A DNA stretch of 64,000 nt from Lytechinus pictus (Eukaryota). Every line of letters begins with the position of its first letter. The first letter of the stretch is position 1. The translations under genes were made by a program, and so were the position numbers. The notes under the pieces were generated by a model, which was not told where the DNA came from, searched no databases, and saw nothing but the letters and a program-made list of their open reading frames with translations. The stretch covers positions 42,596,001 through 42,660,000 of the forward strand of contig NC_087251.1 in the NCBI RefSeq assembly GCF_037042905.1, written 5' to 3'. Below are positions 8,075 to 40,690 of this stretch, piece after piece.

Positions 8075-10324
8075 TGCCATAGGTAACTCGTGAGCCATTT
8101 TCAGAATATCCGTGCGGTAACAAGGAGGAAATACTACCTGGTGAATTATACACCAATTATCATCAGCTGTTACGTCTGCGGGGAGGTCTCCACTTCCTCA
8201 TCAAAATGTCATCTTTGACATAAAAGCACTCAGGAACCTTATCAGCCTCAGCCTCATGCAGAACATGCTTTCTGTGACAAGCTTTTCAATTCTGGGTATG
8301 CCTGTTGTGCCTGTACAAGGGAGGATTTACTAAACAAACTATCATTGTTAGCAACAGAGCCTTCAACACTATCCCCATTCAAATCCTTGAAAAAGGTTTC
8401 AGCTAACCAGACATCAGTCATCTCTACTACATCAGTAGATTCCACATCGTCCTTTTCAGCTCTACGAGTCTGAGACCTAGTAACAACACAATCCGAGAAA
8501 ATCCCTGGAAAATCTTCCTGCAACAATTCAGTTTCAGCTTCCTCAACGGGTTTCTCCGAAACCACTGGAGATGCAACAAATCTATCTCCAGCCAAGTCGT
8601 TACCTAACAAGAAATTAACACCTTCCATGGGTAATTCTGGAACGACACCAACAGTCACAGGACCACTAACTAGGTCACACTTTAAGTCGACCTTATGCAA
8701 AGGAACCGACATGAAGTTTGGGCCAATACCTTGAATTAAGCCTTTGGCATTCTCTGAACTCTCCGGAGGAAGAGCCAAATCCCCTGGCACCATCAGGGAC
8801 TGTGCAGCCCCTGTATCCCTAAGGATCACCACTGACCTACCAGCAGCACCGGCCAGTCGAACAAGGGGATACCTCACCATCATACAAAAAGCTTCTAAAG
8901 GTTTCATCAACCTGTTTGACTTTATCAGCAAATACTAGAGAAACACTCTCAACATCTCGATTGGGCTCTGATGGGACAAACTCCATCGAGGGAACACTTG
9001 TTTGCTTGACAAAACCAACATGATTCTTTCAAATTTCCCGATTTATGACAATGAGTACAAACTTTGGAACTACGACTCTCAGACCTTTTGGTTGTTTCTG
9101 TGCCCCAACTAGCCTGATTCTTGTTAGTGTCTTTGTCCTTGCTAGCATATTTTCCCTCACCAGGTTTATTGTGGGATTCAAATGACCCTTTACCTTTCTT
9201 TTTCCAATAATTCTTGAAAGGAGGCCTATCTCCACTACCCTTATGTGCGACCTCAAATTCATCAGCTTCTATGGCTGCTTTACTGACTTCAGTAACTCTA
9301 TGGTCATCTAAGTGAGATTTAATGCCAAAAGGAAGACTCTTTTTGAATTTATCTAGGAGGACAACTTCCCTAAGGTGAACAAAATCTTTGTCAACTTTCT
9401 GTGATCTATACCACTTATCGAACATCATCTCTTGTTTCCTAGAAAATTCAACATACGTCTGGCCTGATTGTCTTCGCATGTTCCTAAACTTATGTCTGTA
9501 CGCTTCTGGTACTAACTCATATGCATTGAGAATTGATACTTTCACTGTAGCATAGTCACATGATTGCATTTCAGAGAGTGATAGACTTTTGCAGCCTTTC
9601 CAATAAAAACGTTTTGGAGGAGAAGAGTCCAGTATTCCTCAGGCCAATTCAGTCTCTTGGCCACTTTTTCAAATGACACAAAATATTATCAACTCCCTCT
9701 TCATCAAATTTTGGCACAAGGCGACTGTTTTTCGCCACATCAAAGCCTTTGGGAGATTTATCTTTAACAGAGTTAGTATTAGTATTTGCATGAGCTAACT
9801 CCATTTCTTTCAATTTCAACTTGTACTCCAATCTCATTTTCTCCATGTCAATGTTTTCTCTGATTCTTTCCTTTTCAAGGTTTTCTTTGATTCTTTCCTT
9901 TTCCAATTCAATTTTTGCCAGTTGGATCTGAGCATCCTCTGACATATTGATTGAAGTTTCAGACTCCTCTGTAAGCTTCATGTGACTAGCTAACAAGTCA
10001 ATTATCTCTGCCTTCTTTAAACCTGGGGCTAGAGATACACCCAAATGATCACAAACTGTTATCAAATCATCTTTCTTCAGTGACTTCAAATGATCATATG
10101 ACAATTCTGTCATTGCAAGAAATTCTTCAACATCAAATGTAGCCATAGTGAATACACATAAATACAAGCAAGTAATAACACAGTACAGTATATTCTAGAA
10201 CTTTCCAAAAATTTCCAAAATGTTTCGAATTCAAATTTGGATTTGTTTCATATTGACTTTCGTCTCAAATTGGGGTTCGATTTCAAATTGGCTTTCGTTT
10301 CCCGGACAAGTCCCCAATATTATT
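8075..10324 (-). mobile_element. Gypsy (Gmr1-like) internal region: gag, CCHC knuckle, protease and start of integrase; degenerate and truncated
   Basis: gag LVPKFDEE, AYELVPEAYRHKFR; knuckle CTHCHKSGNLKESC; protease ILRDTGAAQSL; then VPECFYVKDDILMRKWRP and HQVVFPPCYRTDILKMAHELPMA down to ~8075. Confidence 0.9.
10299..10316 (-). promoter_or_regulatory. Primer-binding site, tRNA-Pro type
   Basis: TGGGGACTTGTCCGGGAA matches the canonical TGGGGGCTCGTCCGGGAT at 15/18 positions, 8 nt from the LTR end. Confidence 0.8.
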
Positions 10325-14040: not shown

Positions 14041-14129
14041 CCATTATTGAGTGATATGATTTGTTTCAGATGCCCTTTTTGAAGACCCTTTTGGATTTAT
14101 TTTTCTTGCCAGTTCACGAAATGTAAAAG

Positions 14130-16506
14130 AGATGCAAGAAATACATGGAAAATTATAAATGAAGTATTGAATAAACATGAAAAGAAAAATGCTGTATCTA
14201 AGATAAAAATCGATAATAGAATTATTGATAATGTACAAGAAATTTCCGATCACTTTAATAACTTTTTTGTAGAGATTGGCCCAAATTTAGCCAGTAAGAT
14301 ACCAGACAGTAACAAAAGTTTTCATGAATATTTACCTAATCCTAACCCAAATTCTATGTTTTTTGCCCCGGTGGATGAAAGTGAAATTCTTGATATAGTT
14401 AATAATTTACATAGCAAACAGAGTTGTGGACATGACGGTTTTGATAATGCCATAACGAAAAATATTATTTCTTGTATTATTGAACCTTTTACTTATATTT
14501 GTAATTTGTCTTTGAGAACTGGTGTTTTTCCAAATAGAATGAAATTAGCCAAGATAATACCGATTTTTAAAAAAGGTGATCCTCTTTTAATATCAAACTA
14601 CAGACCCATATCATTATTATCAACTTTTTCAAAAATATTAGAAAAGATAGTTTTTTCACGTACAATTGACTTTTTGAATAATAACGAAATTCTAACTTGT
14701 TGTCAGTTTGGTTTTAGAAAACATCATAATACATCTCATGCTATCTTGTCCCTAATCAACAAAGTAGCTAACTCTTTTGACAAAGGCTCCCATACGATAG
14801 GAATGTTTTTAGATTTTTCTAAAGCGTTCGACACAATAGATCACCAAATTCTTTTATATAAACTGTCACATTATGGTATTAGAGGTATTGTGTTAGACTG
14901 GTTCCGTAATTATTTACACGAACGCCAACAATATGTTAGCATTGAAAATCATGCGTCACAATTGAGAAATATTAATTGTGGTGTCCCTCAGGGTTCCATA
15001 CTTGGCCCGCTGCTTTTCATACTTTATATCAACGACTTTAACAGATCCTCGGACTTATTTTCATTTATTATGTATGCAGATGATACCAATCTTTTTCTTT
15101 CACACTCAAACATAGAAACTCTTTATCAGATAGTCAACTCCGAATTAAACTTTGTGTCAACATGGGTTAAGGCCAACAAATTATCCCTAAATCTAGAGAA
15201 AACTAATTTCATGCTATTTAGCAACACATTTAATGAACTACCTTATCCAATTCTAATGGATAACATACAAATAAAACAGGCAACTACAACAAAATTTTTA
15301 GGAACATTCATTGATGACAAACTTTCATGGAAATATCACATTAATAATATATGTAAGGTAATATCTAGAAATGTTGGTGTAATAAATAAGCTCAAATGGG
15401 TATTCCCCCCTAACATTCTGAAATCTTTATATTCAACATTAGTTTTACCCCACTTGAATTACGGAATACTCGCCTGGGGAAATAGTGCAACATATATGTT
15501 AAATAAAGTATTACTCTTACAAAAAAAAGCTATGCGGATCATAAATCAGGTTGATTTTAGACATCATACAGACGGTCTTTTCCAATCAAACAATACTCTA
15601 AAAATTTACGATATTTATCGATTGAATCTTGCGATTCTTATGTATCAGTATAACAACCAAGGGTTACCCTCCATTTTTAACAACATATTTCGAGTAAATA
15701 ATGAAATTCACCGTTACCCAACTAGACAAATCAATTTGTATCATCTGCCAAGGACTCGTACAGCATTTACACAAAACACTTTTATATTTACTGCCCCCAA
15801 ATTTTGGAATTCCCTTCCCCTAAATACGAGAGAGAGCTTAAGTATAGGTACATTTAAATTTAAGGTTAAAAAATCACTACTTGCCCCCTACTCACAACAA
15901 ACCTCAATTACTTGATAATCATACAGATCCCACCTCCCCCCGACCCCTTTCCCCTACTCGCTCTTTCTTATTTGTCTTTTCCTTATCGTTTTTCTTGTCC
16001 CCCGTCCATTGTTCTGTTTGTTTTGTTTTGTTTTGTTTGTTTGTTTTTTGTTATATCATCCATGACCATGACCATGCATTTATCTTCCATATGTTCAGCG
16101 ATTTTCCTACTATTTATGTTCCCTTATTTCGAATGATCATTTACCAAGTTTACATTATATTACGTTATTTACATTATTTACGAATTCGAGAGATCAGCGT
16201 CCAACAAGCCTAGCTTCTCAGCTGGTCTCTCTTTTCATTTCACCCCTTTTTTTTTTTTAACATACACAAGAATACTCAAGCTTTTAAGAATGTTAAGTTT
16301 TATAAAATGAGGATATATAAGTATCGTATTTTGTTCGTATAATTACCAAATCTTTGCAAATGTATAAGGTCGTTACTTATGTTCATTTTTGTAATTGTAT
16401 TTATGTATTTGTATTTATGTATTTTTGACTTGTATGTGAAAAAATGGAAAGAAAAGAAATGAAATAAATCAATAAATCTAAATCTAAAATCTAAAAATCT
16501 AAAAAT
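14130..16506 (+). mobile_element. 5'-truncated CR1/L2-group LINE (Crack/Daphne-like) with 3' UTR and microsatellite tail
   Basis: RT ORF followed by an AT-rich UTR, AATAAA and an (AAATCT)n tail at ~16463-16506. Confidence 0.92.
14167..15915 (+). CDS. LINE ORF2 reverse transcriptase and C-terminal domain (uninterrupted, 582 aa)
   Basis: NYRPISLL, QFGFR, FLDFSKAFDT, GVPQGSILGP, YADD, KFLG motifs. Confidence 0.93.
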   Translation: MNKHEKKNAVSKIKIDNRIIDNVQEISDHFNNFFVEIGPNLASKIPDSNKSFHEYLPNPNPNSMFFAPVDESEILDIVNNLHSKQSCGHDGFDNAITKNIISCIIEPFTYICNLSLRTGVFPNRMKLAKIIPIFKKGDPLLISNYRPISLLSTFSKILEKIVFSRTIDFLNNNEILTCCQFGFRKHHNTSHAILSLINKVANSFDKGSHTIGMFLDFSKAFDTIDHQILLYKLSHYGIRGIVLDWFRNYLHERQQYVSIENHASQLRNINCGVPQGSILGPLLFILYINDFNRSSDLFSFIMYADDTNLFLSHSNIETLYQIVNSELNFVSTWVKANKLSLNLEKTNFMLFSNTFNELPYPILMDNIQIKQATTTKFLGTFIDDKLSWKYHINNICKVISRNVGVINKLKWVFPPNILKSLYSTLVLPHLNYGILAWGNSATYMLNKVLLLQKKAMRIINQVDFRHHTDGLFQSNNTLKIYDIYRLNLAILMYQYNNQGLPSIFNNIFRVNNEIHRYPTRQINLYHLPRTRTAFTQNTFIFTAPKFWNSLPLNTRESLSIGTFKFKVKKSLLAPYSQQTSIT

Positions 16507-17237: not shown

Positions 17238-19610
17238 CATATGTATATATGACTCATGGATACAGACATGTATCTCACCAACAAATCAATGCGAGCGCGA
17301 AGCGCGAGCTGAAATTTTTAGTATACTGACCTTAAAACAGGAAAAGCGTACCTGTTTAGGACTGTTTGTATAGTAACTCATGAGGAGGATACATATCTCA
17401 ATACACAGATAATGCGAGTGCCGAGAGCAAGCTGAAATTTCTTTATATTCTGACCTGAAAGCTTGATATTCTAAGCATTTTTGGTACCAATGATTTAGAT
17501 TGGTATCTAAAAGAACAATTTTTTTTTGATATTTCGATCTGAAAAAATGACAGTTTAATGGACGTTTTTTTGAAGAACAAGATATATATCCAACAAAGAT
17601 TATTGCAAATCGAAGCGGGAGTTCTTTTGAGATTTAGAATTGAAAAAGGGACATTCTATTCACCTATTTAATAATGAAAAGTATGGGTTTTGCTACAGAA
17701 ATGATGCGAGCGCGAAGCGCGAGCTGAAATTTTTTATATTAATATGAAAAGCGAACATTTTGAGCACAATTTTAAATATAGAACGAGTTGTGTATCTCAA
17801 TCTCGCTTGTTGAACACTACAATCTTATTTTATTTTTGCACATCCGGAATTATTGGGGGGGGGGGCAAAATGGGTGAAAAGGAGAAAAAGAGGGAGAAAG
17901 AAAGAGAAACGTATTGGGGGAAAAGAAATTATTGTATATTATATTATATCATATTATGTGATAATAAGAAATATTTTGTTCATAACATTATGAAACATAA
18001 TAGGGCCTAAGTGTTCATCATTTCCGGTGGTCGCATTGTCTGTTTGATGTGATTATAATCCTGTTGTATTAAGATATCTCGTTTTCAAGTCAATATACAC
18101 CAAATATATTTCCTCGCACTAGTTATTCATATGATTGTTTCATGTAGTGACATATGCTTATTTTTCATGACTTCCTAAAGTGATTGCCCATTTTTTAGGT
18201 TTGAATATAAAACATATCCAGTCCGTATTTACGTTCACTTTAGTGGATTTGTGAGCTATGTCTGCCTTTCATGAATTTCTAAAGTCAGTCCTGAAAATGT
18301 TCACTTTTCTGGTCTGGATGTCAAAAATTTTCAGCTCGCGCTCGCATCATTTGGTTAGTGAAATACATGGTCTGGGCGAATTTCTACAAACAAGCCGTAA
18401 AATGCCCCTCTTCAGTTCTGAATTTCAAAAATTTTCAGCACGCCCTTCGTGCTTGCAATATTTGATTAGTTAGATACGTATCATGTTCATGATTACAATG
18501 ACTACAAGTGATTCATGTGTTTAGGTGTAATTCTAATAAAATCAGCAAGCGCTTGGCGCTCGCATTAGAAGACTATGGTGTGGTCAGTATCGAATTCATT
18601 ATCAGGAGGGGGCTGACTAAAAAAGGGTATTGTATGGACTAGTGAAACGCAAATATACGCATACCACCATCCACCTGCGCATAGCGCTATAGGCCTACAT
18701 GTAGAGAGTGAAGTGATCGGGCTGAAAAATAGCACATTCTCAAGGTCTTTTGCAGATAATTTGAAATACAAATTTGATTACATTTCATTGTTTTTCATGA
18801 CATTTTAACAAAGAAATTGTATTTTCTCACTGTTACTTAGAATGTACCATCAATATATTAAAAATTCAGCGCGCGAAGCACGTACATGCGTGCGCTGCCC
18901 CTGGACTCCAGCAGGGACCCCAAAGGTGGATCCAGCGCCCTAGTCACTAAATCTCGCGCTTTACACTCTATTTTGTGAAACATGCAAAATAAATCTTCTT
19001 CCCCCTCTGTCCCAATCTTTTCTTTTGCCACTCATCACTTTTAAAATCCTTGTCATGCTTGTACTGCCACTGCTCAGGGGCTCCCTTTATTTAGGTAATA
19101 TAAAACAAATATAAAACATGGGCATGCCCGGTGATTTTTAAAAGAATACACTTTTTTTTCCTGGGGGAGGGAATTTGAAAAACAAATCCTGTGTGAAATT
19201 TCATGATTTAGTGAACACTTTTAGTGAGTTCTGAGAAAATCTACAGTAAAAAGGGTAGGTTTTCTTTTTTTTTCTTTTCCTTTTTTTTTTTGGGGGGGGG
19301 GGGGGGGCGGGACAACAACTCTGCCCCTGATGCGTATGACCATGTTATTGATTTATCATATGCTCCTTCTTCCAAGGGAAATTTGTATAGGCGGTATCGC
19401 CTTGAAATTATTGTTCACCCGTTCCGAGTAACAAAACACAATATTTCTTTATTAGAATGTCATGAACCGATGAAATTTCGTTAATTTTTTTTAAAGTGAC
19501 AACTCTTCCTCATAATGAATGAATTCGCTCGCTCACTACTCTTTATAAACTTAGTCCAATACGCAATGTCTCGCCCCCTCAAATTTTGTGGCTCATCACG
19601 CCACTGCCAG
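17109..19610. repeat. Cluster of non-autonomous DNA-transposon fragments and microsatellites
   Basis: CAGGGGCGTCGATCC start; repeated GCGAGCGCGAAGCGCGAGCTGAAATTTT in both orientations; (CA)n(TA)n; ACGCCACTG end near 19606. Confidence 0.55.
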
Positions 19611-19813: not shown

Positions 19814-20354
19814 ATGGCTCAGAGTACGATACCATAAATATTCCACGAGTTTGGGAATATTGCTCGAATCATACATGAGTGCGATATTGGCCCTAATACT
19901 AGTAAGTGGAAACCTCTGGGGTAGCAATTTCCTGCGCAACGTCAAATTATGTACTCTGACATTGCACAGGCAAGACGAAATGTAGGTTTCAATGCACCCC
20001 TAAAGGCCCGGTATATTGACTTTTCCTGATTATAGCTTTTAAGCAAATCATTAAAATAATCAGTGGCTTTGGAATACATTTTTTCATTCATTCTCTTTAG
20101 TTCAATGTAATTACTCTTTTCACCTTTTCTTATTCATTTAGGAACTTGCATTATTAAAGGAGGCTTGGATCTATCTTGAACGATAGATCAACTCGTTAGT
20201 GAGGTGATAGCTCATTATCCTCAACATAATGCTGAGCTAGCAAAGACTGGAATCGAGTTTTATCCATGACCTTGTGAAGGGAAACACTGTCGCTGACCTT
20301 GAGAAAACACATGGCCAAGGAATCTTTGGTTATCATTCAAAAGGTAATAGTTTT

Positions 20355-20565
20355 AACGATGATGGTGATCGTAATGGTGGTGATGATAATGATGATACCG
20401 GTACTAATAATAAATTGTTATGATCGTGATGATGATCATGATATTCATAATGTTTAATGATTAGGATGATAACGATGCTTGTGATCATGATGATGATTTT
20501 GATTGATGATGATAGTGATGATTATGATGATGATGGTGGTAGTGTTGGTGTTGATGATGACGATA
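20355..20565. repeat. Degenerate (GAT)n microsatellite
   Basis: Direct reading. Confidence 0.85.
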
Positions 20566-20808
20566 TCACATGAAGGAAGTCTCATCGATAGTCAATACCA
20601 TTCTTTCAATCCCGCCGCAAGGACAATCAATAATTTCTTAAAATCGGTGATTCGTTGGCCGCTTAAAGATTTATAAAAGAGACACAATTTGTACTTAATG
20701 TTACTGTTGATCTTTCTTCTAATGCCTCTTAAATAGTTCCGTCCTATCTCGAAAAAATGGTATCCCCCATTCATTATAAATTGATTCCTTGACATTTGAT
20801 TTTTTTAG

Positions 20809-21993
20809 GGGAGTGCTGCGCCTTCGGACACTGTGGAGGTCAAGGAGGAGGTGAAGCCCCCGAAGGATTCCTACAACCAAATACAGATAGAAGTCGAAGC
20901 CATGTCACCCGTGTTACGTGACCCGGTCCAGCCCGAGCAGGACATCTTTTCACAGCTAAAACATGTAAAAGGTATAAAAATAGGTCACCTAAACTGCAAT
21001 TCCCTCCGTAACAAGCTCGATGAGCTGAAACTCCTTCTGCTTTGTCGGGCAATATTTGATGTGATGACCCTGAGCGAAACCTGGTTTGGTGAAAACGACG
21101 CAAACGAAAGTTTCAACGTTCCTGGATACACAATTATGTCAAGGAAGGATGGGGCTCCTAAGTTTACCGGTAGGCCACGCGGTGGTGTTTTGATATATGT
21201 GAAAGACAGTCTTTCAAGATTGGTCAGAGAGTGTGACACCAAGATGGAGGAAGGATTAGAGGCATGCTGCATCGATATCCAGCTTGGCGGGAGTAATGAT
21301 GTAGGGCAAGGTTCAGACCAAATCAACATGTGCTTGAAGAAGAATATTCTGAGAATCATTACTGTGTACGTGCCACCAGGAACGAGGGGTCAGGTTTCCC
21401 TCTTGAAAAAACTGCAAAGCAGTTTGAATAGTTTGAAGGCAACAGATAGTTGCAAGTCTACAGATTGTTGCTGTAAAACAAACTATGTGATACTAGGTGA
21501 TTTAAACTGCGATAGAAAAACTCTTTCGTCGTGCAAATCCATGAAATCTGTGAAAGGGAAGAAACTACAAACGCTCGATGAAATTGAAAACAGCCACCAT
21601 TTGTCACAAATGATTAAACATCCTACACGGGTTCAATGCAAGAAGAAGAGAGGTCAGCCCACATATTATGAGAGGACAGAATCGTTGATCGATTTTGTCC
21701 TCTCAGATATACTTGCTGTCTCATCGGGAGTAATACATAGTGCTATAAGTGACCACTATATGGTTTACTGTGCCTATGAACCTGATAAGAAAGATCTCTT
21801 CAAGTCAACACCGTTGCTAACATTTGAGGAGTTTTCTCAACTTACCAAGAGTGACATTGACGAAGAAGTATATGGAATGATTCTTGCCCGTGACATTGCC
21901 AAGGAAAGGGGTGTTTGGGATGCGTGCAAAGAGTGGAAAAAGGCCATCAAAAGAGCAATGAATGAAAACAAAAAAGAACGGAAGCAAAAATAA
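20809..21993 (+). CDS. Stand-alone apurinic-like (EEP/APE) endonuclease of LINE type; probable terminal coding exon
   Basis: Motifs GHLNCNSL, LSETW, GGVLIYVK, VYVPP, GDLNCD, PTR, LIDFV, SDH; frame opens right after TTTTTTTAG (AG at 20807-20808) in phase 0; stops at 21993 after a Lys-rich tail; no RT follows. Confidence 0.85.
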   Translation, partial: GSAAPSDTVEVKEEVKPPKDSYNQIQIEVEAMSPVLRDPVQPEQDIFSQLKHVKGIKIGHLNCNSLRNKLDELKLLLLCRAIFDVMTLSETWFGENDANESFNVPGYTIMSRKDGAPKFTGRPRGGVLIYVKDSLSRLVRECDTKMEEGLEACCIDIQLGGSNDVGQGSDQINMCLKKNILRIITVYVPPGTRGQVSLLKKLQSSLNSLKATDSCKSTDCCCKTNYVILGDLNCDRKTLSSCKSMKSVKGKKLQTLDEIENSHHLSQMIKHPTRVQCKKKRGQPTYYERTESLIDFVLSDILAVSSGVIHSAISDHYMVYCAYEPDKKDLFKSTPLLTFEEFSQLTKSDIDEEVYGMILARDIAKERGVWDACKEWKKAIKRAMNENKKERKQK

Positions 21994-22169
21994 AAAAGGG
22001 GTTGAAGTTAAAATGACTCGTGTAAAACCGAAAACATAAGGTGTAATGACCAGATATAACGCTTGAAATAATGAGTACCGGCATATCATATTGGCTATTG
22101 TTAGCTGATCTCAATGAAAGATATGAGATGATCTATTATGATGATCAAAGTGGCAAATAGAAGTTATTT

Positions 22170-24200
22170 TCCGCACCTAGAAATTTTCTTTCCGGTGAAG
22201 TTTTTTTCTTGATTTGTGTTTCCTAGAATAAATTCAGCTTGGTTGCCCAAACGGCAACTTTGGGCAACTTTGCTAATTTGCATAAATCCAAAATGGCCAC
22301 CAAATATACAAATTAAAAACTGAACTTTTGAACCCCTTGCCACAGAGTGATGAAGAATACCACTTTTAAGGGCCTCTAAGGATTTGTAGTATCCATTTCT
22401 ATTATCATTTTTGCCATATAAGGTGATCTTCAGGCCAAATTTAGGATGGCCGCCAGACGCCATCTTGAAAAATTAAATTTAAACCGATTGCCTCAGCATG
22501 ATGAATAATATATCTTTTAAGGGTTTTCAGGTGTGCCGAATCCGTATTTGTTATCTATTTTGCAATATCAGGTCATCTTCGGATTAAATCCAAGATGGCC
22601 GCAAGGTCGATGCCATCTTGAGATATTAACTTTTGATCCCTTGCCCCAGAATAATGGGAAATACTTTTGGGAGAATTTTGTGGTGTGTAGAACCCATTTA
22701 TATTCTTAATTTTAGAACAAAGGATCATCTTCAGGTCTAATTCAAGATGGCCACCAGATATCATCTTGAAAACTTGAGCTTTTGAATAACTTATCCCTGA
22801 CTACTATATAATACATGTAATATCTTAAATTTTATAAGAGGGGTTTATGTGGTGTGTAGAAATTTTCTCGAACAAGTTCGAAAAGTTAACTTGATTCCCA
22901 CTCGTCATCAAGGTATTCAGGGACACCCACTTCCTCGTCTTCACTCAAAAACCTCTTCCTTGACATTGTCCATCTCGACACTTTCGATCATTTTCCCATG
23001 TTGGCACTCCCTTAGATCTGATCACATCCATCCAATGACGTTTGAGTCAATATACAGATGGTAGAAAGAAGAGCGTTCTTATCGACAAGTACAAAGACAC
23101 CACTGTCAATGATCATGAGAGAATGCGAGGGGCTGGTGAAGTTACGAGTTCTCCATCACTAAGAGAGATGTCATCATGAAGAACAAGAACAACAAACGGA
23201 GTCTGGCAAGCGTGTTGAGTACCTTCAGTCTAGGGATCATACGACAGTGGAGACACTTGACGATGGTATGATTGCTCATGAGATAGATGTCACCATGATC
23301 TTCCAAGTCTTGCAGACAGCTATGGTCAGACGGTGATTTGTGTGCTTAGCGATGAAGATTTTGTCCTGCTTCATATCAGGTGAGGCTTATAGTGCAAGGT
23401 ACAAATTGAGCAGTGGGATAGTATAGTGCTGGATATTAATGCAACCTGTGTTGACCTGGGACCAAAATGTTTGCAGTTGCTTGGTGTTCTTGTCCTCAGT
23501 GGATGCGACACGAAATCATCATCAAGAAGAGCGTTCTTATCGACAAGTACAAAGACACCACTGTCAATGATCATGAGAGAATGCGAGGGGCTGGTGAAGT
23601 TACGAGTTCTCCATCACTAAGAGAGATGTCATCATGAAGAACAAGAACAACAAACGGAGTCTGGCAAGCGTGTTGAGTACCTTCAGTCTAGGGATCATAC
23701 GACAGTGGAGACACTTGACGATGGTATGATTGCTCATGAGGTAGATGTCACCATGATCTTCCAAGTCTTGCAGACAGCTATGGTCAGACGGTGATTTGTG
23801 TGCTTAGCGATGACACAGACGATTTTGTCCTGCTTCATATCAGGTGAGGCTTATAGTGCAAGGTACAAATTGAGCAGTGGGATAGTATAGTGCTGGATAT
23901 TAATGCAACCTGTGTTGACCTGGGACCAAAATGTTTGCAGTTGCTTGGTGTTCTTGTCCTCAGTGGATGCGACACGAAATCATCCATACGGCAAAGGAAA
24001 GATAAGTGCACTAAACACACTACTTGTCGGGGATTTTCTATAGGTTTGGCTACTATTCTTGGAGAGGTATTGACCACTCCCATAGATCTGATGGAAGCAG
24101 CAAAACCCTTCTGTCTTGCTCTGTATGGTCATCAACCAGACGTGTCTAGAGCCTATGGAGTCAGCGTTCGTCGCCTTCAGCATGAACAGGAAGAAAAAGT
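22170..24200 (+). mobile_element. Degenerate Academ-like DNA transposon: subterminal repeats plus XPG/FEN-type nuclease remnant
   Basis: ~160-bp repeats carrying CAAGATGGC/GCCATCTTG (22260-22790); translated fragments HEVDVTMI, VICVLSDDTDDFVLL, LSGCDT, PYGKGKISAL. Confidence 0.65.
23066..23983. repeat. Near-identical 458-bp tandem duplication
   Basis: AAGAAGAGCGTTCTTATCGACAAG at 23066 and 23524; the copies differ by a few small changes. Confidence 0.92.
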
Positions 24201-24769
24201 AATGGCCCAGTATTAGTTTTAAAATTGTCACTATGCTACTCGGTGTCCAGCAAATATCACATTTGGTAGACACCGAGTTGCATAGTGACTATTATTAAAT
24301 TCCTTTGAAAGTAGAAATAAGAGGTATTAGCTACCTGACTATATTATCAAGTGTAGGTCAAACTACTTGCCGTAATTTGACTTGTAGGACCAAATGTAAA
24401 TATCCCGATGCTACACGGCGTTATACACTGTTTTGCTAAATAACTTAATGAAAAATTAAGCTAAATGACCCCCAAAGTCCCAGTAAAATATATGGTTTTA
24501 TAATACAAATGTAAAGCCTACAAACAATAAATGTATAGTATAATTAGTACTGAGTTATGCTGAAATGTCACGTTTTGTGCCCCAACTTCATGGAAAGACC
24601 CGTATATATACATGTATATCAAAATAATTTATGATCTATTTTCGGTATGTAGATAAAACATATATATGTTTCATTATATTGCATTATGCAATACTTTCAT
24701 TACGTTAAATTTTAATACTTTATTTCTCTTTGTGTCTATATTATATATTTTTCCCCTTCAATTATATGG

Positions 24770-26160
24770 AAAATGTATTATGCGATTATTGATGTATTAT
24801 TGGGCAGGGGTAAGAAGCATTTGATCCCATCAGAGATGTTCCATGAAGGCTCATATTTATTGTCTAGTAAGCATAAGGCTGAATGTTTTAACAAATATTT
24901 CATTGGATTGCCTGCGAAAATAAGTAGAGAAATACCGACAGTACCACAGTCTTTTCATGAGTATTTAAAGCCAAACATTGATAATACTTCTCTGTTTCTT
25001 AGACCAACTTCTGTCACTGAAATCATTAATTTTGTTTCATCACTTAAGTCATCAAAGTCAAGCGGTTCTGATGATATTGCCCCTAGGGTTGTTAAGGAAT
25101 GTATTCATTATTTTGTTGAACCATTATGTGTTATTTTTAATAATCCTTTGTCACATGGGATAGTCCCATCGAAGTTAAAGGTGGCTAAGGTTCTTCCTGT
25201 TTTCAAAAAGATGACATGGAGAATATTGTTAATTACAGACCTATAGCTCTTTTGCCAATATTTTCTAAGCTCTTGGGGAAGATTGTTTACAAGCGATTGA
25301 ACGGGTTTTTGTTGGCAAGAAACATTCTGATCCCTCAGCAACATGGTTTCCGAAAACACTTCTCTACTAGCATGGGTGTTTTCAATTTATTAAAGACTAT
25401 TATAAAATCATTTGATGATGGTAATTTTTGCCTTGGAATTTTCCTTGATTTGTCCAAGGCATTTGACACGATTGACCATGTCATCCTTTTAAGTAAACTT
25501 GGTCACTATGGAGTACGCGGAGTAGCACTGGCTTGGTTCCAAAGCTATTTACAAGATCGTACACAATATGTCATGGTTGATGGTGTTAAATCGCAATCTG
25601 GTAATATTCACTATGGTGTGCCCAGGGTTCGGTACTTGGTCCTTTGTTATTTTTAATCTATGTCAATGATATCATTAACTCATCAAATGTGTTTTTGTAT
25701 TCTCTGTTTGATGATGACACAAGTTTACTATTGTCTAATAGAAACGTTGCTACTCTTATTTCAGTTGCAAATGTAGAAATTAAAAAGTTACTTGCATGGT
25801 TCTGTTGTAATAAACTTTTGCTAAATGTTAAGAAAACTAAATGTATTATTTTTCGATCACGAGGCAAAATTATTCCAGACGATGTCAATATTCTTGATGT
25901 TGGGGGCCACAATGTTGCTCGTAGTGAGCATATTCAATTTCTAGAAGTAATTATTGATGAGCATTTGACTTGGAAACCCCATTTAGAATCAGTGTGTACA
26001 AAGGTTTCTCGAGGTGTAGGTGTTATATGTAGGTTAAGGTGTGTTTTACCTGGGTCTATTCTAAGAATCTTATACACCAGCATTATGCTTCCCTATCTGA
26101 CTTACTGCAATGTTGCATGGGGTAATACTTTTATGACTTACATTGACAATATATTTATAT
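24770..26160 (+). mobile_element. Degenerate CR1/L2-group LINE RT fragment
   Basis: NYRPIALLP, FLDLSKAFDT, LFDDDT across three frameshifted ORFs. Confidence 0.9.
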
Positions 26161-28736
26161 AAACTTTATTTTAAAAATCCTTCAAATTATCGGATAAAGG
26201 TATACAAAAAATGCGGAATCTTCTAACCAATAAAATTAAATCTCGTAAAATTGAATATTACAAAGATCAGTTTGACTGTGCCAAAGGCAATATGAAGAAA
26301 ACATGGAATGTGATCAATAGAGCTATGGGTAAAGAACATAAAGGCGTTTATATACGCAAAGTTATTGTTGACGGAGATTATTCAAAATATCAGGGAAAAA
26401 GTTTAAATCTGTAACTTCAGAAGTTACATATTCATACTTGTTCCCTGACATTTTGAATAACTATTTTGTAAATATTGGATTCAAGTTAAATAATAGTTTT
26501 ACAAACTCATCTAGTCAAGATGTCACCACTCATATTAAGGGTAATGACAAGTCAATGAATTGTAATCCAATAACCATAGGAGAAATTATTGAATTTGTAA
26601 AAAAAAAAAAAAAACAAGTCAAATGTGGGCCATGATGGTATTGATATGAGAGTGGTAAAAAAAATATTTATTTTTTTGTGTCAACCTTTATGTGCAATAT
26701 TTAATGCTTGCCTTGAGTCAGGGATTTTTCCGACATAAATGAAATTGGTCGGGTTATTCCCATTTTTAAAGGTGGTTGTCGTGAAATACTTACAAACTAT
26801 CGCCCAATTTATATCTTACCTGTCTTTTCAAAGATTTTTGAGAAATGTATATATGTTAGATTACTGAATTTTATCAATGAGTGCAATATTATTAGTCCGA
26901 ACCAACATGGATTTCGGGTGGATATTCCACATCTTCAGCATTACTTGATTTTATTCAAAGTATTACTAGAGTTATTGAAATAAAAGGTGTATCAATTGGC
27001 TTATTTTTGGATTTACAGAAAGCGTTTAACACACTTGATCACAGAATACTCATGAAAAAATTATTCAAACATGGAATAAGGGGAAACATTTGGAATCTTT
27101 TAAACAATTATTTAAGTCATAGACAACAATTTGTAACTTTAAATAGTCAACAATCAAACTATAAGGACTTAAGGTGTGGAGTACCCCAAGGTTCTATCCT
27201 CGGGCCCCTTTTATTTACTTTGTATATAAATGATAAGTGCAATGTATCTTCGAAATTGAAATATATTTTATTTGCCGACGATACAAATATTTTTATGTCA
27301 CATGATAATATTGATGTTCTGCAAATGCAATTTGATAATGAATTTAAAAAGGTTACGTTTTGGTTGACCATCAACAAATTATCTATAAATATTTCTAAAA
27401 CACAGTATATGGTTTTTACAAATGAAAAAAATATACATTGACAATCTGCAGGTGCAATTAGCAAATTTTAGTGTAGCAAAGGCATCGCAAGTCAAATTTG
27501 TTGGTATTATAATTGATCATAAATTGATATGGGTTCCTCATATTGATTTGATTTGTAATAGAATTTCCCAAATCATAAGCATTTTGCACAGATTACGCAA
27601 TTTTCCAATTACTGTTTTTTACGAAATATTTATCACGCACTTGTTGCACCTTTTTTTAAGTTACAGTATTCTTGCCTGGGGTAATGCTTCTTTTCACACC
27701 TGGATAGAATTTCTAAACTTCAAAAACGTGCAATAAGAATTGTTAATCATTCGTCTTTTTATGCTCATACAGAACCAATTTTTAAGTCTCAGAGGATTTT
27801 GAAATGTTAGGACTTTTACAATTATGAGACTGCAATTTTCATGTACGGTACAAGTGTTATAAATATCTTTTGCCTAAGTCAATATGTAATTATTTTGTTT
27901 TAAATCGTAATGTACATATTTATACAACCGGTTAAACTTCGTAATTCTTTATTCCGGAAGTTTGTAATTCCGAAACACGCAAATTGCCTATACCTCGATG
28001 TTCGTTAATCCGAAAACGTAAAAGGGTTCATTAATCCGAACATTTGTGGCGTTATTCCGAAGGTTCGATAATCCGATAACGAATTAAGGTTCGATGTTCC
28101 GAAGGTTTGTTAGTCCGAAAATGAAATAAGGTTAGTTAATCATTTAGTTTTCGGACTAACGAACCTTCGGAATTACGAACCTCACTTCGTTTTCGGACTA
28201 ACGAACCTTCGGAAATACGAACCTTCGGAATAACGAAGCTTCGGAATATCCGAACCTCCGAAATAACGAAGTTTCGGAATTACGAATGTATGCGTATACA
28301 ACCAGGGGCAATAATGATTTTCATATACCTAAAGTAAGAACAAAATTACTTCAAAACTCTTTTTTTTTTTTTATAGGGAACCATTAATTTGGAATACTTT
28401 ATCAAAGGATCTTAAGGATAGTTGCTCTCTTAATGTTTTTAGGAGAAATTGTAAATATAAAATCATCACAACTTATTCATTTTTTACGAAATTATTATTC
28501 TGATTGTTTGTTTGGGTTAGTTAGGTAATTCTTTCCCCTTTTCTACTTTAATTGTTCAAATAATGTATTATTTTATTTGGGTCGGCCGTACATAAGGTTA
28601 ACTTCTTTTTGGCTTCTACCCTTTCAATATAATACTTCATTTATGTCCATGTCTGATTTATTTCATGTTTGTACTATTTGTATTGTTATTATACTGAGAA
28701 AAATAAATTGAATTGAATTGAGTTGAATTGAATTGA
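26161..28736 (+). mobile_element. Degenerate CR1/L2-group LINE with 3' UTR and (AATTG)n tail
   Basis: KTWNVIN, GVPQGSILGP, LFADDTN fragments; AATAAA followed by (AATTG)n at ~28700-28736. Confidence 0.9.
27929..28294. mobile_element. Foldback-like MITE built from short repeats, 8-9-bp TSD
   Basis: TATACAAC(C) at 27921 and 28295; internal TTCGGAATTACGAACC repeats in opposite orientation in the two halves. Confidence 0.88.
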
Positions 28737-37114: not shown

Positions 37115-40100
37115 TATTCAATTCAATTCAAATAAACGTTTATTTTCTTCCATTTCAAAACATTTTTCATAAACATTAGTTCATACAAAAATCAAATTGT
37201 TATGAGGAATATAAATATGTATATGTTTGGTATAAAGAAGAAGGCGTATACCCTAAAAGCCGAGGCTTGTGACGGGATACGCCTATAGACAGAAATACAA
37301 TACAAAATACAATACAAAAGAAAGGGCAGAGAAAAGAAGAGAAGGAAAGGGAACGAGAGAGGGAGACGGGCATGAATTACTGTATAAAATAGAATGCTCA
37401 ACAAATGTATCAGTGGGGGCAAAATATAAATGCTGGAACAACAATTGTCCATGGTTCATGTTAACTTAAAGTCAAAAGGAAACGTAAGTTGGAAAATATT
37501 CATATATAAAATGACAGAAGAAGTTTTTTCATTTTATACTTAAAGCTAGTTGACGATAGAGATTGTTTTATGTAATCTGGTATTTCGTTCCATATTTTGG
37601 GGCCAGTATAACGAATGTTGTGTTTAAAGATTATTTTTCTATGTTTGGGAATGAATATTTGATTATTTGAGCGGGTATCAAAATTATGTATGTTGGAAAC
37701 ATGCGTAAACAAATCACGAAATTTGTGTGGAATTTAAGAATTTAAACACCTGTAGAGAAACTGACATTGTTGAAGTTTATTGATGTCGTCTAAATTCAAC
37801 AATTTTAGGGAATGATACAAATTTCTAGTATTTGCTAGTGGTATATTGTAATCTGGAGAAATAATACGCACAATTTTATTTTGAAGGGAACATAATTTCT
37901 TAAGATGGGTTTGGTATGTGTTCGCCCAGACCAAATTGCAGTAATAAAAATATGGCAGGATTAAAGAGCAATATAATGTACGCAATACAGTTTTAGGCAA
38001 GTAAAAACTTAGGCGATGTATTATTCCAATATTTTTTGCAACTTTGTTCTCAATTTCATTTATGTGATGTATCCATGTTAAATTACTTTCAATAATAACG
38101 CCAAGAAACCTTGTATTTTCAACTCTGGGAATAATTTGGTTGTTAAGTTTCACCATAATCAATACGCCTTGTGGAGTTACGGAATATAATGTAATTGCAT
38201 TTTTTATAATAATAATAATAATATTCCGCATTTATATAGCGCTTAACACATCGGAACGACGTCTCTAAGCGCTTTACAGATATATCATTACCCCGGTCAT
38301 CGGATCCTTGCATGCCCGCATACAATGTATGCACCTTCTCCACTCCCTGGGGAGCATTCCAACAAGAGTTCTAAGACTCAATTGCTAGGCATACTAGGCT
38401 TTCGCATCCTACCGGGTACCCATTTAACACCTGGGTGGAGAGTGGCAAATTGTGGATTGACGCCTTGCCAAAGGACGCTAGGCCATGGTGGGATTCGAAC
38501 ACACGACCCTCTGATTACAAGGCGAGAGTCAGAACCGCTACACCACGGCGCTTCCACGTTATAGTTAATGGTAAGCTTGTTTGCACAAAACCATTTACAA
38601 ACATTTGTTTGTTCAGTATTTACAGTTTCACACAAGTGATGAAGATTTCTATCAGAATAAACAATATTGGTATCGTCGGCGTACATGATAAAGGAAAGGA
38701 GATTTGACGAACGATAAATGTCATTAATAAATAGAATAAACAAAAGTGGGCCAAGCAATGACCCTTGTGGTACTCCACATTTAATTGTCTTAAATTCAGA
38801 CTGAACGGAGTTATAAACGGTGCATTGTTTACGATTTGAGAGGTAACTAGAAAAAAGGTCGAGGGCAGTTCCACGAATACCATAGTTAGTTTTGATAAAA
38901 GTATATTATGATTAATTGTGTCAAACGCCTTTGACAAGTCAATAAATATCCCTATTGCGAATGAGTCGTGCTCAAAGGAGTCAATTATGGTATTTGTTAA
39001 TTCGAGAAGAGCTAGTTCTGTTGAGTGGTCACTACGAAATCCGTATTGAGATTCAAAAAGACACTTGTTATTTTCAAGAAAATTATAGGCCCTTTTATAA
39101 ATAATCTTTTCCAATATTTTAGAAAATATAGAGAGCACTGATATGGGTCTATAATTACCGATCTGCGTTTTGTCACCAGCTTTAAAAATTGGAGAAACTC
39201 GCGCAATTTTCATTTTTTCAGGAAATACCCCAGAGGTTAACGATAGATTGAATATATGACATAAAGGTTCGCTAATTAGTTCGATTACAAGTTTAACAAT
39301 CTTAGGTGAGCATTCATCAAGACCTGGGGCTTTATTGTTATCGAAACGCATGACAATGTTACATATTTCACGTTGGCTTACCGGATTTAAAAACAAAGAT
39401 TTTGAATTTGGTTCAGATAGATAAGTTCTGAAATCTGTATTTTGAGGAGTGATATTAGCTAGCTTTGGACCGATTTCAACGAAAAAATTATTAAAAGCAT
39501 TTGCTATTTGGAACGGGTCTGACGACCGACCTTCGTCACAAACTATGGTGTTGGAGGTTGATTTTTTTTCTTTTATTTAATATTGATTTGATCATTTGCC
39601 ATGTATATACGATTTATATTATTTTATATTCTTCAAATTTAGATTTATAATAATGTTTTTTAGCCTGCCGTTTCAAACAGTTAACTAGTTTAAGAGAATC
39701 TTTGTATTTAAGTTCGTTTCTAACTGTTGGTTTATGAATATATTTTTTATATAGATTGTTTTTATGTCGAATAGATTGAAGCAAACCATCGGTCATCCAG
39801 CATTTCAGTTTAATTTTCTTACTAGGTGTTCTTTTTAATGGAAAATTGTTATTATACAATGTAGTAAATTTGGTTATGAATATATAATATGATTCATTAG
39901 CATCCTGCATATTAAAAATTTCATCCCAATTTGAATTTTCGATTTCGTTTTAAAATTTCGCAATATTTTGTGTTGTAAAAGTCCTACGGAGTACGTTATG
40001 ATTTGTCGATTTAATTTTACTAACATTCATGTAAGTTATATGAAATATTGGTAAGTGATCTGACACTTCAGAGTATATCACTCCACCTTTACTATCTAAG

Positions 40101-40690
40101 TCAAATTGATTTGTCAAAAAAATTATCTAAAAGGGTGGCACTTGTCTTAGTAATTCCTGTGGGCCTGTGAATTAAAGGGAGAAAAAAATTACTGAAAAGA
40201 CAGTTCACAAAGTTCTTACTTTGAGGATTTGAGTTGTGTTTTAAAATATCTATATTTAAGTCGCCCGTCAAAAATACCCTTTTATTATATCAAATGTAAA
40301 TTTCAAAGAGTTAAGACAGCTTGAAATGTCATCAAAAGAATTTAAAAGACTTCTAACATTAAAGTAAATGCTTGAAAATTTACCGCTGCTCGGGACACCA
40401 ATATTTTCAAAGTTTGTATTAAATTCTTCATAACAATAGTACCGAGAGTCATTTGAACTCTCAGTATAGAATTGGAAGTCTGGGTCAACATCGTCATTTG
40501 GGACAATGCTTTCATGTGCTAAAAAAGGATCAAAACGTAAATGAGAAATTCTATCAAAATTGTCTTCTAAGGGTTCATCAGCCTATATTACATCATCGAG
40601 CTCGTTATCATTCAACTGGTTGAAAGGAAATAAGTGTTCAAGACAGTGTTTACAACAAGAAAAATATTCGTTCCAGTCATGGTTCCGACA
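37115..40690 (-). mobile_element. Near-complete but degenerate LINE ORF2 (APE with deletion, RT) plus 3' UTR
   Basis: N-terminal C..C...FPFNQL, FNVRSL, NYRPISVL, DLSKAFDT, MYADDTN, KIWNEIP; (TTGAA)n tail at ~37117. Confidence 0.92.
38209..38558 (-). mobile_element. Full-length tRNA-derived SINE inserted in the LINE RT
   Basis: A box TGGTGTAGCGG, B box GTTCGAATCC, core CCACCCAGGTGTTAAATGGGTACC, GCGCTATATAAAT plus (ATT)n tail; TTATA repeated on both flanks; removal restores LTINYKKCNYI. Confidence 0.92.

Follow-up and report, generated by a model that had tools for sequence, protein, structure and literature searches.

A LINE-type endonuclease exon in Lytechinus pictus and the low-copy sea-urchin gene family to which it belongs

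The endonuclease exon and its locus

The stretch of Lytechinus pictus DNA analysed here, called the window throughout, is 64 kb long and corresponds to C7:42596001-42660000 in the 812-Mb assembly. On its plus strand, positions 20809-21993 form an intact stop-to-stop frame of 394 codons and a TAA, which encodes an endonuclease of the type found in long interspersed nuclear elements (LINEs). The frame directly abuts a TTTTTTTAG acceptor and has the TAG at 20806-20808 (ttttttt-ag) as its upstream bound, just as an earlier inspection of the letters alone (the sequence-only reading) had described for a frame of ~394 codons. The only other frame of at least this length in the window is the LINE reverse transcriptase (RT) frame at 14083-15915. 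A search of ~5.8 billion proteins returned XP_063957584.1, the 405-amino-acid uncharacterized protein LOC129265719 of L. pictus, which is 100% identical. Since the LOC129265719 product consists of MAKESLVIIQK followed by the window frame (junction MAKESLVIIQK|GSAAPSD), the NCBI model splices 20343^20809. Probably, the frame is the terminal exon of LOC129265719, one of three paralogues in a sea-urchin-specific host gene family with a captured LINE endonuclease of the APE type, and the window copy is somewhat more likely than not a recently disabled duplicate.

The window protein scores 30.9 bits against Pfam PF14529 (Exo_endo_phos_2, 'endonuclease-reverse transcriptase') over residues 182-319, above the cutoff of 27.4, and 20.9 bits against PF03372 (Exo_endo_phos) over residues 61-138, below the cutoff of 24.5; one paralogue protein (P0002) is above the cutoff for both. 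All of the APE motifs listed by the sequence-only reading (HLN, SETW, VYVPP, GDLN, ID and SDH) were found. In an alignment of 44 sequences, made up of the window protein, 10 family members and 33 shorter LINE-like proteins chosen from 150 listed, the window protein keeps the residue in 9/9 invariant or nearly invariant columns (N62, E90, Y187, D231, N233, D295, S314, D315 and H316). The catalytic and metal-binding roles of the N, E, Y, D-x-N, D and S-D-H residues are assigned after the LINE-1 endonuclease (L1-EN) and APE1. The AlphaFold2 (AF2) model built from the same alignment (mean predicted local distance difference test, pLDDT, 84.7; predicted template modelling score, pTM, 0.82) shows a four-layer alpha/beta sandwich at residues ~43-325. 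The best Protein Data Bank (PDB) matches of this model in Foldseek are to the endonuclease of the human LINE-1 open reading frame 2 protein (ORF2p) (1vyb_B, E 3.9e-11, TM-target 0.65), with a second L1 ORF2p endonuclease structure among the top matches (2v0r_A, TM-target 0.70), followed by APE1, bacterial AP endonucleases and the TRAS1 endonuclease (TRAS1-EN; 1wdu_B, 6.2e-9). By sequence, the PDB gave no match with either the family profile (E<=0.01) or the single domain (E<=10). Judged by profile, residues and predicted fold, the window protein is a LINE-type APE endonuclease of the endonuclease/exonuclease/phosphatase (EEP) superfamily, with predicted activity.

The Cys-rich insert DSCKSTDCCCK lies directly before the GDLN strand and is 10-12 amino acids shorter in the window protein than in its paralogues. 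This insert, the leader of ~45 amino acids and the basic KKKRG are all present as the sequence-only reading noted, and are traits of the family rather than peculiarities of the window copy. Within 21994-24715, no plus-strand frame of at least 60 amino acids contains RT, and the window frame itself contains no RVT_1. The nearest same-strand RVT_1 pieces downstream lie at 25189-27438, in agreement with the earlier observation that no RT follows the frame. No poly(A) or microsatellite tail was seen after the window stop. The same-strand RT at 24.7-27.4 kb was considered as the missing half of the element and rejected, because homology to the paralogues ends at ~22145 and the family's own stop and tail precede the RT.

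Alignment by blastn pairs window 20030-22145 with the paralogue on C7, and 19954-20382 and 21292-22051 with the copy on C21. Homology to the paralogues starts 110-190 nt upstream of exon 2 and ends at ~22145, ~150 nt past the stop (Table 1). Within this unit, the exon 2 remnant is broken. A TGA at 20177-20179 replaces the Trp of LDRSW, where all other members have (L/I/F)DR(S/T)W, and a 32-nt deletion at ~20260 and a 1-nt insertion at ~20325 follow. The ATG at 20311, which NCBI uses as the start, is out of frame in the paralogue and is fortuitously framed with the donor by the window's 1-nt insertion. Exon 1 was not found in the window by tblastn (E<1) or by blastn with a word size of 7; genome-wide, it occurs only at C7:42549664, in the paralogue, and at two places on C21. 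At the 3′ end, a 2-nt insertion at ~21990 shifts the frame and makes both the TAA stop and the overlapping AATAAA, and the tail of the window copy is shorter by the last 8 residues of the family tail. The Lys-rich end with AATAAA over the stop that the sequence-only reading pointed out is thus real, and is the product of an insertion that clips the family's normal tail. Further changes unique to the window copy are the loss of 8 residues from the leader, the shortening of the Cys-rich loop, another deletion of 2 residues, insertions of 3 residues (KHV) and of 1 residue, and L where GDFN otherwise has an invariant F. With exon 1 absent, exon 2 broken and the tail clipped, it is doubtful that the locus is a working chimeric gene, a reading that these observations do not support.

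Two repeats touch this region. A GAT/ATG-rich minisatellite at ~20354-20568 in intron 2, whose translation consists of D, M and I runs, forms tandem arrays at numerous loci across most chromosomes and accounts for the majority of 166 genome DNA matches. A collinear block at 17864-18580, shared with intron 1 of the paralogue, was considered as duplicated intron 1 and rejected as a high-copy repeat. It gave 3497 first-look candidates, and 40/40 scored copies were ~80% identical over nearly all of its 717 nt.

Table 1. Positions of the gene features, the two paralogous exons and other retroelements (window coordinates unless C7 or C21 is given)
Feature	Position	Strand	Remarks
Duplicated unit	19954..22145	+	3′ end of intron 1, exon 2, intron 2, exon 3 and ~150 nt of 3′ flank; from blastn
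Exon 2 remnant	20142..20343	+	second half of the N-terminal domain; acceptor ag 20140-20141 and donor gt 20344-20345 kept
First coding segment of LOC129265719	20311..20343	+	ATG...CAAAAG, MAKESLVIIQK, 11 codons; ends at the old exon 2 donor
Intron 2	20344..20808	+	ends in the ttttttt-ag acceptor, 20800-20808
Terminal coding exon	20809..21993	+	leader 1-42 disordered; APE/EEP fold ~43-325; Lys-rich helical tail 339-393
Endonuclease domain proper	20935..21783	+	from the 44-sequence alignment, paralogue alignment and AF2 model
Conserved residues	N62 20992; E90 21076; Y187 21367; D231/N233 21499/21505; D295 21691; S314-D315-H316 21748-21756	+	
AATAAA	21989-21994	+	overlaps the TAA stop, 21991-21993
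3′ end	21989..22016	+	family's last codons (..K K G L K L K) and TGA 22014-22016 readable in the +2 frame
C7 paralogue (LOC129265718)	C7:42541781-42542962	-	77% identical; 420-amino-acid open frame
C21 paralogue (LOC129282926)	C21:14424823-14425554	-	71% identical over residues 161-393
LINE RT frame	14083-15915	+	intact, 610 amino acids; unrelated to the family locus
LINE RT frame	25189-27438	+	pieces; unrelated to the family locus
LINE RT frame	38381-39576	-	pieces; unrelated to the family locus
Short endonuclease fragment	40125-40289	-	55 amino acids; upstream of the minus-strand RT; unrelated to the family locus
Long terminal repeat (LTR) retroelement pol remnants (RT-RNase H, integrase zinc-binding) and SCAN-domain frame (retroviral capsid-like fold)	1357-2762; 8952-9638	+; -	

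The three-exon family and its LINE relatives

A six-frame search of the L. pictus genome (E<=0.001, with 105 of 1138 first-look candidates scored) gave 106 matches. Among the candidates scored, only the window and two others are at least 71% identical, and the remaining 103 are at most 45% identical and are LINE ORF2s, many in frames of ~1000 amino acids. At the DNA level, the unit of exon 2 and exon 3 occurs at just 3 loci in 812 Mb, all other DNA matches falling in the intron minisatellite. The low copy number that the sequence-only reading named as support for domestication is borne out by these three loci, and many near-identical copies joined to RT were not found. The window copy lies head-to-head with LOC129265718, ~66-73 kb apart, with exon 1 of the paralogue ~66 kb from the exon 2 remnant of the window.

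Members of the family are annotated in four species, all as 'uncharacterized protein'. They include LOC129265718 (535 amino acids), LOC129282926 (525 amino acids in nr, 353 in the assembly) and LOC129265719 in L. pictus, LOC121418282 (533 amino acids) and LOC121418283 (524 amino acids) in L. variegatus, LOC100887867 (545 amino acids, 54% identical) and LOC115927413 (441 amino acids) in S. purpuratus, and XP_072166780.1 (516 amino acids, 40% identical) in Diadema setosum. Four unnamed ENA fragments (P0009, P0010, P0013 and P0159) are additional relatives. Scores among 1.84 billion representative proteins are bimodal, with 6 proteins at E<=1e-30 and the next at 2.9e-16; the same search gave 35 at <=1e-10 and 1652 at <=1e-3.

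A full-length member has three parts. The N-terminal region of ~115 amino acids (consensus M..WKPK.IFLLP..YP...GYG | ..DR.W...Q....P....L...GI.FA......VH......TV.DL...HG..ILVIL.K) is followed by a linker and the endonuclease, with its Cys-rich and basic inserts, and by a helical Lys-rich tail (consensus ..DID..VY..I..RD.A......W.......IK.AK..NKK). The Diadema member has the same N-terminal domain (N-domain), APE and tail, and the family proteins of the four species contain no RT. Because Diadema belongs to Diadematoida and Lytechinus to Echinacea, the three-part architecture is older than the split between these groups, which took place well over 150 million years ago. Judged from its sequences, the family is a low-copy host gene with a transposon-derived domain that has lost its mobility module and is conserved across sea urchins to Diadema.

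The C21 locus shows some peculiarities. In the assembly, LOC129282926 is without the first ~165 codons of exon 3 (353-amino-acid model, P0008), and its nr version (P0004) is full length. A second copy of exon 1 lies at C21:14407632-14407754, ~17 kb from the C21 paralogue, and the surrounding blocks are duplicated. The state of this locus could reflect structural polymorphism, local duplication or an assembly problem.

The exon borders of the C7 paralogue were located by tblastn and DNA comparison, and all are GT-AG. Exon 1 reads ATG...GGATATG|GTGAGT, and exon 2, 5.6 kb downstream, reads ...AATAG|GAAGTTGC ... CAAAAG|GTAATA, while the border of exon 3 is TTTTTGCAG|GCGAGTG.... Transcript evidence comes from contigs of two public runs of one study (X1 and X2, taken as 'RNA' by guess, with shares of 0.08 and 0.06). 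These contigs align to the window at 90-95% likeness, and their non-matching ends are the joins of exon 1 to exon 2 and of exon 2 to exon 3. They include 35 letters of exon 2 that are absent from the window copy, and they encode the LOC129265718 protein sequence in two allelic versions. As the genome holds no intronless copy, the joined exon forms are transcripts. The three-exon structure and the use of the homologous exon 3 acceptor are thereby shown for the C7 paralogue. The splice use at 20809 proposed by the sequence-only reading agrees both with XP_063957584.1 and with this homologous junction. No X1 or X2 contig reaches 95% likeness on the window's exon 3, a result that is uninformative either way on expression of the window copy. 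Two contigs of 161 nt are near-exact to the window at low depth, at 20610-20769 in the intron and at 22079-22238 in the 3′ flank. Taken together, the earlier proposal of an exonised, host-recruited last exon of a chimeric gene fits the family, which is spliced, low-copy and conserved, and does not fit the damaged window locus.

The X1 and X2 contigs of the paralogue, aligned at window 20970, differ at one codon (..LSLLG.. or ..LSQLG..). These forms match the nr protein and the assembly, respectively, and are thus allelic variants of LOC129265718.

The N-domain matches no Pfam family, and its ESM Atlas clusters are all unnamed. Two profile searches with this domain, one of longer and one of near-length proteins, returned only the family and the ENA fragment P0159. 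Since the Diadema member was itself missed by the word-based search, distant relatives of the N-domain could have been missed too. The AF2 model of the N-domain, from 7 sequences, has a pLDDT of 63.4, a pTM of 0.51 and the order beta-alpha-beta-alpha-alpha-beta-beta-alpha-beta. Compared with 48,161 PDB representatives, nearly all of its 50 best matches are ubiquitin-like (SAP18, kindlin/talin F0, RA, UBL; FERM-F0). The best, 4a6q_A, has a Z score of 7.8 (the trust level is 8) over 107 aligned residues, with a root-mean-square deviation of 4.4. As a lead only, the model suggests that the N-domain may be a ubiquitin-like (beta-grasp) docking domain.

To place the endonuclease, a profile from 11 family proteins was run on 192 sequences (157 stored proteins and 35 long frames, own-genome loci L004-L030). 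The resulting tree holds the 88 sequences that span the whole endonuclease, over 251 columns; P0007 and P0013 are out on coverage, and the truncated P0008 was dropped. The 9 family members form a single clade with a support of 0.998, nested among LINE sequences. The Pfam scan covered 27 non-family matches, namely 26 of at least 600 amino acids and P0115. RVT_1 follows the endonuclease in 16/27 of these, several have a PHD finger before it, and a Rep or helicase domain occurs in 0/27. Rep, helicase and transposase domains were likewise absent from the family proteins scanned (P0002, P0006 and P0009). With RVT_1 in 16/27 and Rep or helicase in 0/27, a Helentron origin of the family is unsupported.

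In one predicted protein among the sequences, P0138 (1010 amino acids), host domains of the VWA and anthrax-receptor types are combined with a LINE APE and RT in the central part. An intronic LINE has probably been incorporated into this gene model.

Selection on the window copy and competing explanations

Ratios of nonsynonymous to synonymous divergence (dN/dS) were estimated on exon 3 by the Nei-Gojobori method, with three-taxon branch estimates over 232 shared codons. Between the window and the C7 paralogue, dN is 0.133 and dS 0.220, a ratio of 0.61 over 390 codons that differs from 1 (Fisher p=0.005). The ratio is 0.66 between the window and C21 (232 codons) and 0.50 between C7 and C21. 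By branch, it is 0.60 for the window (dS 0.20; p=0.015 against 1), 0.26 for C7 and 0.83 for C21. For the family, the C7 branch value and the 40% identity kept to Diadema indicate purifying selection, but the value well below 1 that the sequence-only reading looked for was not obtained for the window copy, at 0.6. Replacements on the window branch nonetheless fall in 4/70 sites conserved also outside Lytechinus as opposed to 34/169 variable sites (p=0.006). The window protein keeps 67/71 residues in the columns that do not vary among the other members, the changes being L55Q, F243L, L279M and T310S, while the other members show 0-2 changes in the same test. Indels between the window and C7 are in frame in 6/6 cases inside exon 3, compared with 4/20 in the flanks (p=0.0009). 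In simulations of random substitution (20,000 trials), the paralogue exon stays open in 1.9%, 1.1%, 0.24% and 0.04% of trials at 100, 120, 160 and 220 substitutions. These exon 3 signals imply that selection preserved the exon during much of the period after duplication.

Exon 2 carries a different kind of record. Its remnant differs from the C7 paralogue at 19/204 positions (9.3%), compared with 34/182 (18.7%) in the adjacent intron (p=0.011), and is no more diverged than exon 3 (142/1145 mismatches). The lower divergence relative to the intron suggests that the window copy was once complete and that its 5′ loss is recent, with gene conversion or small numbers as alternative causes. The tree places the window protein inside the S. 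purpuratus branch, as sister to the whole remaining set of Lytechinus proteins from both species, with a longer branch of its own. Its position and longer synonymous branch make it an older duplicate within the Lytechinus lineage.

In our preferred reading, the ancestor of the family would have captured the APE of a non-LTR retrotransposon ORF2 without the reverse transcriptase. Exons 1-2 of full-length members would supply the family-only N-domain of ~115 amino acids, and exon 3 the disordered linker, the endonuclease and the Lys-rich helical tail. The fold and residues suggest a Mg2+-dependent DNA-nicking enzyme or phosphodiesterase acting in the manner of L1-EN or APE1; having no RT, this enzyme cannot prime reverse transcription. 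The N-domain may serve protein-protein docking or regulation, and the basic tail may bind nucleic acid or direct the protein to the nucleus. The window copy would be a duplicate born inside the Lytechinus lineage that later lost its N-domain and the last 8 residues of the tail. Starting at the in-frame ATG that lies 11 codons ahead of the former exon 2 donor, translation could then yield a 405-amino-acid protein without the N-domain. On balance, we favour a recently disabled copy that is becoming a pseudogene over a working truncated enzyme.

Several points weigh against parts of this account. Constraint on the window copy is modest, its dN/dS of 0.6 being more than twice that of the paralogue, and the selection signals are branch-averaged and cannot show present function. 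Since they are averages over the whole branch, 'functional until recently' and 'still functional' are not separable by them. Because homology starts 110-190 nt upstream of exon 2, exon 1 may have been missing from the copy at its birth, and the low divergence of exon 2 would then have to be explained differently, for instance by gene conversion or small numbers. The nuclease activity, its substrate and what the N-domain and tail do are predictions from fold and residues, and the ubiquitin-like assignment comes from a model of pLDDT 63 with Z scores below 8. For other urchins, annotated proteins were the sole basis for judging synteny and orthology, and among these the tree topology gives no L. 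variegatus orthologue of the window copy.

The closest competitor is that the window copy is a working, neo-functionalised gene, whose 405-amino-acid endonuclease without an N-domain starts at ATG 20311, is spliced 20343^20809 and is kept by selection. We give this a real chance, somewhat short of even. The 394-codon frame is intact with 9/9 catalytic or nearly invariant residues and 67/71 family-invariant residues, its indels are all in frame, dN/dS is below 1, and the fold prediction is confident; moreover, the donor and acceptor are preserved, the 1-nt insertion frames the ATG with both, and NCBI predicts exactly the 405-amino-acid product. However, these signals may integrate time when the gene was whole, as constraint on the exon 2 remnant seems to have lasted until recently. 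A frameshift cuts the tail short, the Cys-rich loop has lost residues, GDFN has L for its otherwise invariant F, and dN/dS is 2.3 times that of the paralogue, while a computational gene model is no proof of expression. In a more ambitious version, which we regard as rather unlikely, a host enzyme kept since before the Diadematoida/Echinacea split would combine a ubiquitin-like docking domain with a competent LINE endonuclease, and the window copy would be a lineage-specific, free-standing nuclease isoform. If true, the family would provide a domesticated DNA-nicking enzyme for, as examples, LINE defence, repair or programmed nicking, and the window copy would have shed its regulatory domain.

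It is extremely improbable that the exon is an ordinary decayed or 3′-deleted LINE copy in which the open frame and acceptor arose by chance. The window is rich in LINE and LTR retroelement fragments and the Pfam label reads 'Endonuclease-reverse transcriptase', but near-identical copies are lacking and the nearest LINE ORF2s are at most 45% identical. In addition, exon 2, the intron and the acceptor are common to two paralogues and to annotated three-exon genes in four species, the family is a clade of its own, and the homologous junction is spliced in paralogue transcripts. We also consider it very unlikely that the family is a low-copy mobile element or its cargo, such as a Helentron-derived endonuclease or a gene in a large DNA transposon. 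Helentrons do carry a CR1-like APE domain and occur in sea urchins (PMC4067079), and the family copies lie on two chromosomes, with local duplications at the C21 locus. Against this, the family proteins carry no Rep, helicase or transposase, and the non-family matches scanned point to RVT_1 (16/27) and not to helicase or Rep (0/27). Just 3 loci occur in 812 Mb, Lytechinus and Diadema members have kept a common architecture at 40% identity, and homology between copies ends near the gene, no search having been made for terminal repeats. The host family with a recently disabled window copy thus remains our preferred reading.

Related systems and neighbouring retroelements

LINE proteins have rarely given rise to host genes, and one paper names only L1TD1, the ruminant BCNT-p97 and some ORF1p-fusion exons (PMC12129022). 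The closest known system, and the one known case derived from an endonuclease, is BCNT-p97/CFDP2, a ruminant host gene with an intact RTE-1 ORF2 endonuclease domain in a duplicated Bcnt gene, whose molecular function is given as unknown (PMC12129022, citing Iwashita et al. 2006). The sea-urchin family resembles it in being a host gene with a LINE endonuclease and without RT. As set apart by description, it differs in its LINE source, partner and lineage, the partner here being a sea-urchin N-domain together with a helical tail. With members in Echinacea and Diadematoida, it is also much older than the ruminant case. L1TD1 and the exons that fuse L1 ORF1p (Lyosin and others) are described as LINE proteins domesticated as host coding exons (PMC12129022); unlike the family, which derives from the enzymatic ORF2p endonuclease, they derive from the non-enzymatic ORF1p.

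The LINE ORF2p endonucleases (L1-EN, 1VYB/2V0R; TRAS1-EN, 1WDU) share with the family the fold, the N/E/Y/D-N/D/S-D-H catalytic set and PF14529. The family differs in being low-copy and spliced, in having no RT or ORF1, and in having the Cys-rich insert before the GD(F/L)N strand, the basic insert, the N-domain and the helical tail. The cellular EEP nucleases (APE1/ExoIII, TDP2 and Nocturnin) have the superfamily fold and are among the structural matches, but the family nests among LINE endonucleases, has L1-EN as its best match and carries the LINE-specific PF14529. Helentrons, which occur in sea urchins, also captured a CR1-like LINE endonuclease without RT, there fused to Rep/helicase in a mobile element (PMC4067079). 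The family proteins, by contrast, are without Rep/helicase, and proteins with APE and RT are closest to them.

No paper on the family was found, in a search that had most subscription journals outside its reach, so that absence is unproven. The family would represent a separate recruitment of a LINE endonuclease, one that is much older and retains the full set of catalytic residues. In the laboratory, L. pictus serves as a genetic model. Sea urchins allow CRISPR knockouts and embryo assays, which would open the use of a retrotransposon nicking enzyme by its host to experiment. The three L. pictus paralogues, one intact, one 5′-truncated and one with a truncated exon 3, would serve as a natural domain dissection.

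Other retroelements of the window are listed in Table 1. The sequence-only reading had described two further APE regions in the window; with six LINE APE queries one was found, the minus-strand fragment. Downstream of the gene, at 22166-22300, the depth of X1 and X2 contigs reaches 555, with many unlike continuations, and this segment is an abundant repeat that is probably transcribed.

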